A DNA stretch of 62,157 nucleotides, counting the filler, from Nemertoderma westbladi (Eukaryota; Animalia; Xenacoelomorpha), in assembly GCA_032718475.1 (NCBI GenBank). It is 4 parts of 4 records of this genome, joined end to end, with 100 filler letters (N's around TTAATTAATTAA, not from the genome) between each part and the next. Parts side by side here need not be neighbours in the genome. Positions count along the whole stretch, not along the records: positions 33,239 to 57,257 come from JAUCBJ010003273.1; 3 more parts are not named here. The stretch is one strand, 5' to 3'. Of this stretch, positions 36,401-37,239 are shown in pieces. The position numbers were made by a program, and so were the translations under genes. Position 1 is the stretch's first letter; every line of letters starts with the position of its first letter. The notes below the pieces were generated by a model. That model saw only the letters and a program-made list of their open reading frames with translations, did not search any database and was not told the origin of the DNA.

Positions 36401-37239
36401 GGATCCCTTCTGAATTCGGCCCGGGACTCCGTTGGTGCGGATCTCTGAGACGATTGTGGCTGATTAGGTTCATCAGGCTGTATTGGCGTGGTTCTTTGAG
36501 GTTCGTCTTTTTCAGGCTGCGCTGGTGCTATTCTCTGAGGCGAGTGTGGCTGCCGAGGTTCGACAGGCTGCATGGAGTTGGGGATTCTAATGATGGATTC
36601 TAGTTCATCTAGTAGGGACTCCCTATATACCTGGATCGTCTCATCGTTGATGTCTAATGGGGATCCACCCTCGATAACCATCTTCGCAAACCGACAGAGG
36701 TAAACACCACATTGGTAGGAGTTGTATTGTCGCCTGGCCAGTGGTGGGTCGATTTTGAAGTGAGGGGGTGTTATGTTGAGCCTTCCAGCTTCTAACATTG
36801 CCCAATCTCTGATTATATTTACCACCTGATCATTTGAGTTCCCAAGTGAGTCGAGGTAGGCGATGTTTCCATGTTCTGGAAAAAAGGCAGCTAGAGTCCA
36901 GTGCTTACCATTCACGTTTACAGGAAACAGTATCAAAGCAAGCGAGAAGATATTAGTGTTCCGCGTCCAACGCTTCACCGATTCGTAGCCGCCATCGCTG
37001 GCTGAGTAGCGGTCTATAAAATGGTGCAGCACCAACACATCATCCCGGGATGTTCTTAAAGAATTTAGCACAACTTCGATAACGCTGTGCGTAAGCCACC
37101 CTCTGCCTCGAAGCGTATCAATATCTTTGGCTGTGATTGTGGTCCCGAAACAATCGTAGGTCGCTTGATTACTGGATGGTGTGTTCGTGTTGTTAACGGT
37201 TCTTCCTGATAGATATATAACGCTATCGTTTAGTTCCAT
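33418..37239 (-). CDS. Intact single-ORF CRE-clade retrotransposon protein: Ulp1-like cysteine protease, zinc finger, RT, CCHC, restriction-like endonuclease
   Basis: Ulp1/C48 motifs DIDTL....WL, FPVN...[22 protein letters not shown]. Zinc finger CPVC..HGP...RCFGSG. RT motifs [63 protein letters not shown] motifs [27 protein letters not shown]. Confidence 0.93.

Follow-up and report, generated by a model that had tools for sequence, protein, structure and literature searches.

A SENP1-like protease domain at the N-terminus of a CRE-like retrotransposon in Nemertoderma westbladi

What is a protease of the Ulp1/SENP type doing at the front of a retrotransposon protein? The question is raised by one element in the window, meaning here the whole stretch of Nemertoderma westbladi DNA that was analysed (62,157 nucleotides, filler included). 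On the minus strand, which encodes all parts of the element described below, a stop-free frame spans 33418-37266; with an ATG at 37239 it yields an ORF of 1273 aa (33421-37239), whose stop codon occupies 33418-33420. Translation, Pfam and a family profile identify this as the single ORF of a CRE-like non-LTR retrotransposon with a restriction-like endonuclease (RLE). A Ulp1/SENP-type C48 protease domain (aa 24-211; 36607-37170) comes first and is followed by a linker without glycine (aa 215-284; 36388-36597), at the start of which the translation has a second methionine (M223, 36573). The initial annotation had described this linker as Pro/Gln-rich and as leading into a finger and a reverse transcriptase (RT), and it does so (34% Pro+Gln over aa 216-285). 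The N-terminal zinc finger has the form C-x2-C-x14-H-x6-C (aa 285-310; 36310-36387), and the ORF of many relatives starts here. The RT core (34852-35421) is a Pfam RVT_1 match (aa 607-796; E 1.9e-14), and from aa 1080 onward a CCHC finger and the endonuclease (RHS, E, RVD, D; 33421-34002) were read from the translation against the pattern of PMC12857005 and from the family profile. A probable 5' UTR occupies 37240-37410; contigs at the depth of the element end between 37410 and 37490, where an AT-rich repeat of higher depth begins, and the 5' end is not fixed. In high-depth repeat DNA upstream of the element lies a 54-nt inverted repeat with 94% complementarity (38050-38205), probably a MITE.

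A single ORF with the RT followed by a CCHC finger and an endonuclease of the PD-(D/E)xK type is the architecture of RLE-type non-LTR elements. The family profile, built from 39 members, matches R2 proteins from RT through endonuclease (E 2e-30), with the RTs of L1 and group II introns next, which fixes the RLE type and leaves the clade to other evidence. Three DNA runs (X1, X2 and X3) from two studies cover the stretch, and one of them may be the source of the window. Since a junction contig of X2 with a unique flank has a depth of only 25, the far greater depth over the element marks it as multi-copy, depth not being a copy count. Copies lacking the protease, which would have refuted the initial annotation, are not what the runs show: depth is level from protease to RT in all three (at the RT and the protease respectively, about 181 and 161 in X1, 373-421 and 330 in X2 contigs, and 279 and 272 in X3). 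Single contigs span protease, linker and finger in X1 (36089-37490, with three other letters) and in X3 (36032-37184). The latter exceeds the window sequence by one base, at a position not among the listed differences, and a collapsed copy in the X3 sample may be frameshifted. Toward the 3' end of the element depth climbs to about 1200-1500, and the loose ends are 5'-truncated copies with unrelated flanks, fitting target-primed reverse transcription. Among the copy differences listed for the ORF, a partial set, 10 are silent and 6 are replacements (16 altogether), and the near identity of the copies points to a recent spread of the family. The element is thus intact and multi-copy, a non-LTR retrotransposon whose RT motifs are CRE-like.

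That the protease domain is real was confirmed, its C48 identity lying far beyond chance. The HMM check of the identity first proposed for the ORF's N-terminus returned Pfam Peptidase_C48 on aa 81-207 with E 4.1e-17 (63.2 bits against a cut-off of 20.7). When the first 220 residues were compared with PDB by phmmer, aa 23-211 aligned to SENP1 (E 5.6e-21), followed by SENP2 (2.5e-19) and yeast Ulp1 (5.3e-17), whereas SENP8/NEDP1 scored 0.16 and SENP7 and Ulp2 were likewise far weaker than SENP1. Taken by subgroup, SENP1/2/Ulp1 are nearer than SENP6/7 or NEDP1 (6e-21 versus 2e-4 versus 0.16). In a feature search of the Atlas with aa 15-225, C48 clusters were nearest (0.95-0.96). A single-sequence AlphaFold model of the domain had a pLDDT of 35, too low for use. 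W48 (37098), H113 (36903, in H113-W114), D130 (36852), Q171 (36729) and C177 (36711) align with the tunnel, triad and oxyanion residues of SENP1, and the spacing of His113 to Asp130 and of Gln171 to Cys177 is SENP-like. The order along the domain, W48-L, PVN, H113-W, D130-SL, Q171 and C177-G, agrees with the earlier reading, as do the retained catalytic His, Asp and Cys and the Gln preceding the catalytic Cys177.

The initial annotation had singled out that Gln, in a place usually held by Asp, as a caveat. The Gln is there and matters little: in S5 Fig of PMC4640811 Asn precedes the catalytic Cys in every one of the 11 NeSL rows (N-C-G), which makes a Gln at this position unremarkable. A different pair of residues departs from the SENP1/2/Ulp1 subgroup. 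T50 and H51 (37092 and 37089, in WLTH) occupy the place of N450 and D451 of Ulp1 (WLND in SENP1 and Ulp1), and the SUMO-binding Asn-Asp pair of that subgroup is therefore missing, while its GY..VKRW segment is present. At the codon of His51, the long contigs show no listed difference in any of the three DNA runs. Elsewhere the SUMO-facing surface seems, by eye, to be retained (TITxKD, a Glu four residues on, and GYESVKRW). In Ulp1, D451 forms a salt bridge to R64 of SUMO and the D451N change abolishes SUMO binding in yeast assays, according to PMC3216068, so loss of its equivalent would suggest that SUMO may be a poor substrate; among the 11 NeSL rows of that S5 Fig, 4 lack this Asp too. Judged from these alignments, the true oddity of the domain is the lost Asn-Asp pair rather than the Gln before the Cys; the catalytic machinery looks intact, while the substrate is uncertain. 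With cellular SENP1, SENP2 and Ulp1 it shares the Trp, His, Asp, Gln and Cys as well as KRWT over an alignment of the whole catalytic domain; it differs from them in the Thr/His pair at N450/D451, in the Gln before the Cys, in having no regulatory N-terminus and in its fusion to an RT.

Could the protease simply be the known one of NeSL and Utopia elements, inherited by a relative of theirs? According to PMC4640811, NeSL elements and Utopia-1_TSP carry an N-terminal Ulp1 domain before the finger, RT and RLE in a single ORF, just as the window element does, and NeSL proteins too have a residue other than Asp before the catalytic Cys. The RT argues against such descent. Clades were contrasted by eye on parts of an RT alignment that accompanies PMC7650587 as a supplement, and this contrast is our own and not a published definition. 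In those parts the rows of SLACS, CRE1 and CRE2 have Q-[FY]-G-V, NAYN, QGMVL[GS]P and Y[LI]DD, with ILGA and PR...LLR in two of the three; the R2, NeSL-clade, HERO and R4 rows mostly have Q-[KR]-[AG], AFD/AFG/AYG, SP, [FY]ADD or MDD-type motifs, and YLG/SLG. YLDD appears four times in that alignment file, and the three places displayed belong to SLACS or CRE2. The window element has the CRE-like form at each motif of the census (YLDD, NAFN, MLGAP) and none of the NeSL/R2-type forms ([FY]ADD, AFD/AFG, YLG), and it shares Q-[FYL]-G-[VI], NA[YF]N, QG..xGP, Y[LI]DD, [IM]LG[A] and PR...LR with SLACS, CRE1 and CRE2. Its family agrees: among 189 RT rows, Q-hydrophobic-G occurs in 176, NA[FY]N in 184, Y[LIM]DD in 180 and LG[ASV]P in 141, whereas [FY]ADD occurs in 2, AFD in 1 and KYLG in none. 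By contrast, the NeSL-clade rows NeSL-1_TV, LIN9_SM and R5-1_SM in the same parts of the alignment, which do not include nematode NeSL-1, show YADD, AFG and YLG. The protease itself also speaks against inheritance, as it keeps the GY..V[KR]RW segment of cellular SENPs that is absent from all 12 NeSL/Utopia rows and, by eye, resembles cellular SENP1/Ulp1. Descent of the whole element from the NeSL/Utopia group is thus very improbable.

The CRE-like motifs claimed for the RT at the outset were therefore upheld by the labelled alignment and by the census, and the assignment as CRE-like by RT motifs is well supported, clade membership being unproved: the trees cover relatives from the family's own searches, and the clade call comes from the motifs. 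The published spacing pattern of CRE endonucleases fits the window element roughly; it was left out of the clade assignment because, to our knowledge, it is common to all RLE clades. The CRE clade (SLACS, CRE1, CRE2, CZAR, Cnl1, MoTeR/FoTeR) resembles the window element in its single ORF with an N-terminal finger, an RT and a C-terminal CCHC finger with RLE (PMC12278014, PMC12857005). It differs in lacking an N-terminal C48 domain, the word "protease" occurring nowhere in the main text of either paper. The window element further departs from this clade in its RHS and RVD, in place of RHD/N and R/KPD, in giving no indication that it targets spliced leaders or telomeres, and in a 3' UTR derived from histone H3 mRNA. 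Its 5'-truncated copies have varied AT-rich flanks, and its 3' end falls in a gap.

If the domain did not come with a NeSL-type element, relatives of the window element should show when it was gained. C48 was found in none of the 56 proteins of a full-length search and in none of 168 distinct relatives scanned with Pfam, a set made up of 43 chosen for extensions or closeness together with the rest and including all 148 new representatives. Among the best 150 of 23,994 representative matches, none aligns before query residue 220. The protease as a query matched none of 204 other proteins and nothing in six frames of the best 80 of 488 metagenome loci, of which 18 have enough upstream DNA. Of 44 related loci extending as far as the finger, 41 have an in-frame stop within 100 codons upstream. 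The N-terminal extension of the 119 relatives that reach the pre-RT block has a median of 93 aa and in none amounts to 300, against 363 in the window element. Word-indexed searches with the protease alone found no relatives, a weak result as SENP-class proteins were missed too, and viral contigs held no relative of the RT or the protease. In RT trees (FastTree on 189 rows, IQ-TREE in quick mode on 50 chosen rows) the element groups with P0092 and P0129 (SH-aLRT 100) within a clade of 11 rows (100). Those two are about 55% identical to it and are fragments without an N-terminus, which leaves the age of the C48 gain open. P0210, 43% identical and in the same 11-row clade, is 966 aa long, with a PHD-like finger at its start. 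The C48 gain is thus nested in a protease-less lineage and looks lineage-specific, and the proposal that it was acquired separately from nematode NeSL/Utopia elements is supported by the relatives without C48 and by the GY..VKRWT segment lacking in NeSL domains. The architecture as such is not unique, since the Atlas holds clusters with RVT_1 and C48 (28% of 50 members in one, 100% of 102 in another; scores below 0.9), and one of them might represent a CRE-like family that acquired the domain in the same event.

Other relatives carry proteases of different classes. Eight have a C-terminal USP/UCH domain after the endonuclease (P0156, P0113, P0096, P0100, P0116, P0071, P0082 and P0086); the OTU domain of P0063 and the USP domain of the distant P0055 are N-terminal. 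Cys and His boxes are both present in 4 of the 8 USP domains by our own patterns, and the OTU domain of P0063 retains DGNC. In the 50-row tree seven USP rows form two supported groups, which may still share a single origin. Domains of the PHD and RFX types recur among the relatives as well: P0062, P0103, P0068 and P0069 have an RFX winged-helix DNA-binding domain, some with a PHD finger, which replaces the N-terminal finger or stands beside it. Two distant CRE-like elements (L069:202-5836 and L076:2-6189) have ORFs of 1300-1400 aa; in their upstream frames an OTU-like motif (ADGACC, NGDGICC) was read by eye, together with another domain. The literature searched, outside of which lie Repbase Reports and most subscription journals, contained no Ulp1, USP or OTU on CRE elements.

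Captured proteases are known from DNA transposons. In Ginger1, Mutator/Kaonashi and Helitron elements a ubiquitin-like isopeptidase is fused to a mobility protein, Ulp1 and OTU alternate, and a role in transposition or repair has been proposed (PMC2836005). These differ from the window element in being DNA transposons and, in Ginger1, in the C-terminal place of the domain, which here is N-terminal and in a retrotransposon. The alternation seen there between Ulp1 and OTU extends among the relatives of the window element to C48, USP and OTU. C48 on transposons is a known theme. Sightings of Ulp1 and OTU on transposons go back two decades, and the literature searched reports no tested function for them.

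Taken together, these observations favour, at a probability of roughly 45%, a reading in which the C48 domain acts as a tethered isopeptidase that removes SUMO or a related tag near the element's protein-RNA complex at insertion. Its source would be a SENP1/2-class sequence, taken up in this lineage independently of the nematode NeSL/Utopia proteases and probably through an RNA intermediate, as the H3 piece at the 3' end probably was too. The domain would then be translated as an active fusion with the RT, and, since the protein reaches the nick together with its own RNA, the action of the protease would be local. Its targets may be SUMO or ubiquitin-like marks which, if left in place, would lead to turnover of the complex or bring repair or silencing factors to the new insertion. 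The swapping of C48, USP and OTU among relatives points to tag removal in general. A broader form of this reading, which we consider tentative and less likely than the first, is that the CRE-like lineage repeatedly took three unrelated classes of tag-removing protease (C48, USP and OTU) onto its single protein. Ubiquitin/SUMO marking would then be a general barrier at the insertion step, against which elements carry a counter-enzyme, and the copy in the window would represent the SUMO type, its binding surface re-tuned, and would have been built by the same RNA capture as its H3 end. Close relatives without a protease, or with another class of it, form a natural comparison set for asking what tag the protease takes off and whether it is required for retrotransposition.

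Alternatively, the protease could work in trans as an anti-silencing factor, deSUMOylating proteins of the piRNA pathway or of heterochromatin at existing copies and so raising the element's own transcription. SUMO is needed for transposon repression in Drosophila, where piRNA-guided silencing requires it (10.1101/533091), and for repression of rDNA bearing R1 and R2, which rise about 1000- and 300-fold upon SUMO knockdown (PMC7676866). The SENP1-like character of the domain, its fusion to a putative DNA-binding finger and the near-identical copies, a mark of recent spread, would all suit such a factor. Yet PMC7676866 reports that knockdown of host Ulp1 also raised R1/R2 expression, so deSUMOylation does not simply derepress these elements. 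The loss of the D451 equivalent weighs against it too, and the filling of the same slot in relatives by ubiquitin-type proteases fits general tag removal better than a single SUMO step. Furthermore, in non-LTR elements a protein fused to the RT is probably present in small amounts and attached to the RNA that encodes it. An anti-silencing role, though plausible, therefore appears unlikely, and local tag removal at insertion remains the preferred reading.

The initial annotation had offered processing of a polyprotein as another function, the protease cutting the element's own product and freeing its front end from the RT and endonuclease. A flexible linker does part the domain from the remainder, and I-Q-G-G occurs at aa 326-329, which we take to resemble an adenovirus-protease site. 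A motif of the form [MIL]xGG is found in the linker of none of 31 protease-less relatives. Any GG, however, occurs in 4 of those 31 linkers (13%), and chance suffices to explain the one here. A cut at aa 329 would moreover separate the finger from the RT as well, and between protease and zinc finger there is no glycine at all, hence no di-glycine. Enzymes of the SENP class normally require that a folded ubiquitin-like domain precede the GG, and Pfam finds none in the ORF. Self-cleavage thus drew little support and seems a poor candidate, less probable than an anti-silencing role.

The element has a second piece of host-like sequence, which bears on how the first may have been acquired and whether it is kept. 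Starting one base past the ORF stop, 33287-33416 contain the 3' coding part of a histone H3 mRNA, probably H3.3, from residue 94 onward (residues 94-125 matched). The fragment is untranslated and carries replacements and a frameshift, an extra base at 33320 being present in all three DNA runs. Beyond the H3 stop, window sequence and contigs continue through 33239-33286 to the gap that conceals the 3' end of the element. The junction of ORF and H3 is spanned by contigs at a depth of 1368 in X2 and 664 in X3, and a minor form with a different 3' UTR diverges from the same junction (depth 131 in X2 and 55 in X3); the H3 piece acts as the 3' UTR in most copies. In X2 and X3 coverage of the H3-derived tail (33239-33416) is about four times that of the element body, with many 5'-truncated copies. 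A further run, X5, labelled "DNA?", has an in-frame H3 form at high depth that runs on at 33416 into sequence coding AAIGALQ, presumably of the H3.3 type. Loose ends of X5 include what we take to be a template-switch adaptor, which suggests cDNA. The best reading of these sequences is a captured end of an H3 mRNA that would serve as 3' UTR. H3 as an insertion target is less likely, as the 5' half of H3 was sought upstream in the window and not found and the high-depth DNA form is frameshifted. The "H3 tail" that the initial annotation counted as a second chromatin-linked module does not hold up: the piece is a C-terminal, non-coding fragment and neither a protein module nor an N-terminal histone tail.

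Perhaps, then, the protease is likewise a captured passenger, or a weak binder of changed specificity, of little use for mobility, in which case the locus would be an instance of ordinary domain capture. The decaying H3 fragment shows how readily the element takes up host sequence, and the relatives lack the domain. Its contacts with SUMO have changed, translation from Met223 could yield a protein of the usual family size without the protease and so offer a bypass, and the sole listed copy difference within the domain, at aa 82, is a replacement. Against this, the reading frame is unbroken over 223 codons, and none of Trp, His, Asp, Gln and Cys has been lost despite far divergence from SENP1, while the H3 fragment has meanwhile become frameshifted and gathered replacements. 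An open frame with a kept catalytic set beside a decaying capture would suggest selection on the domain, and a passenger, about as doubtful as an anti-silencing factor, is less probable than an isopeptidase acting at insertion.

Elsewhere in the window, two host-like genes have no introns over the stretches covered: a DUF2046 gene (40917-42317, plus strand), which is presumably CCDC6-like, and an MFS/Sugar_tr transporter (52854-54137, minus strand). A second RLE element with CRE-like motifs (12309-15125, minus strand) is broken and enters a gap on its 5' side; it is 27-32% similar to the first in short stretches. The 100-base gaps at 15164-15263, 33139-33238 and 57258-57357 share one build (44 N, 12 bases, 44 N), are probably joins, and each lie beside a retroelement end. 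Adjoining the endonuclease end of the broken element, a 59-bp tandem array of about 56 copies with 98% matches (9109-12433) may have grown from that element's sequence.
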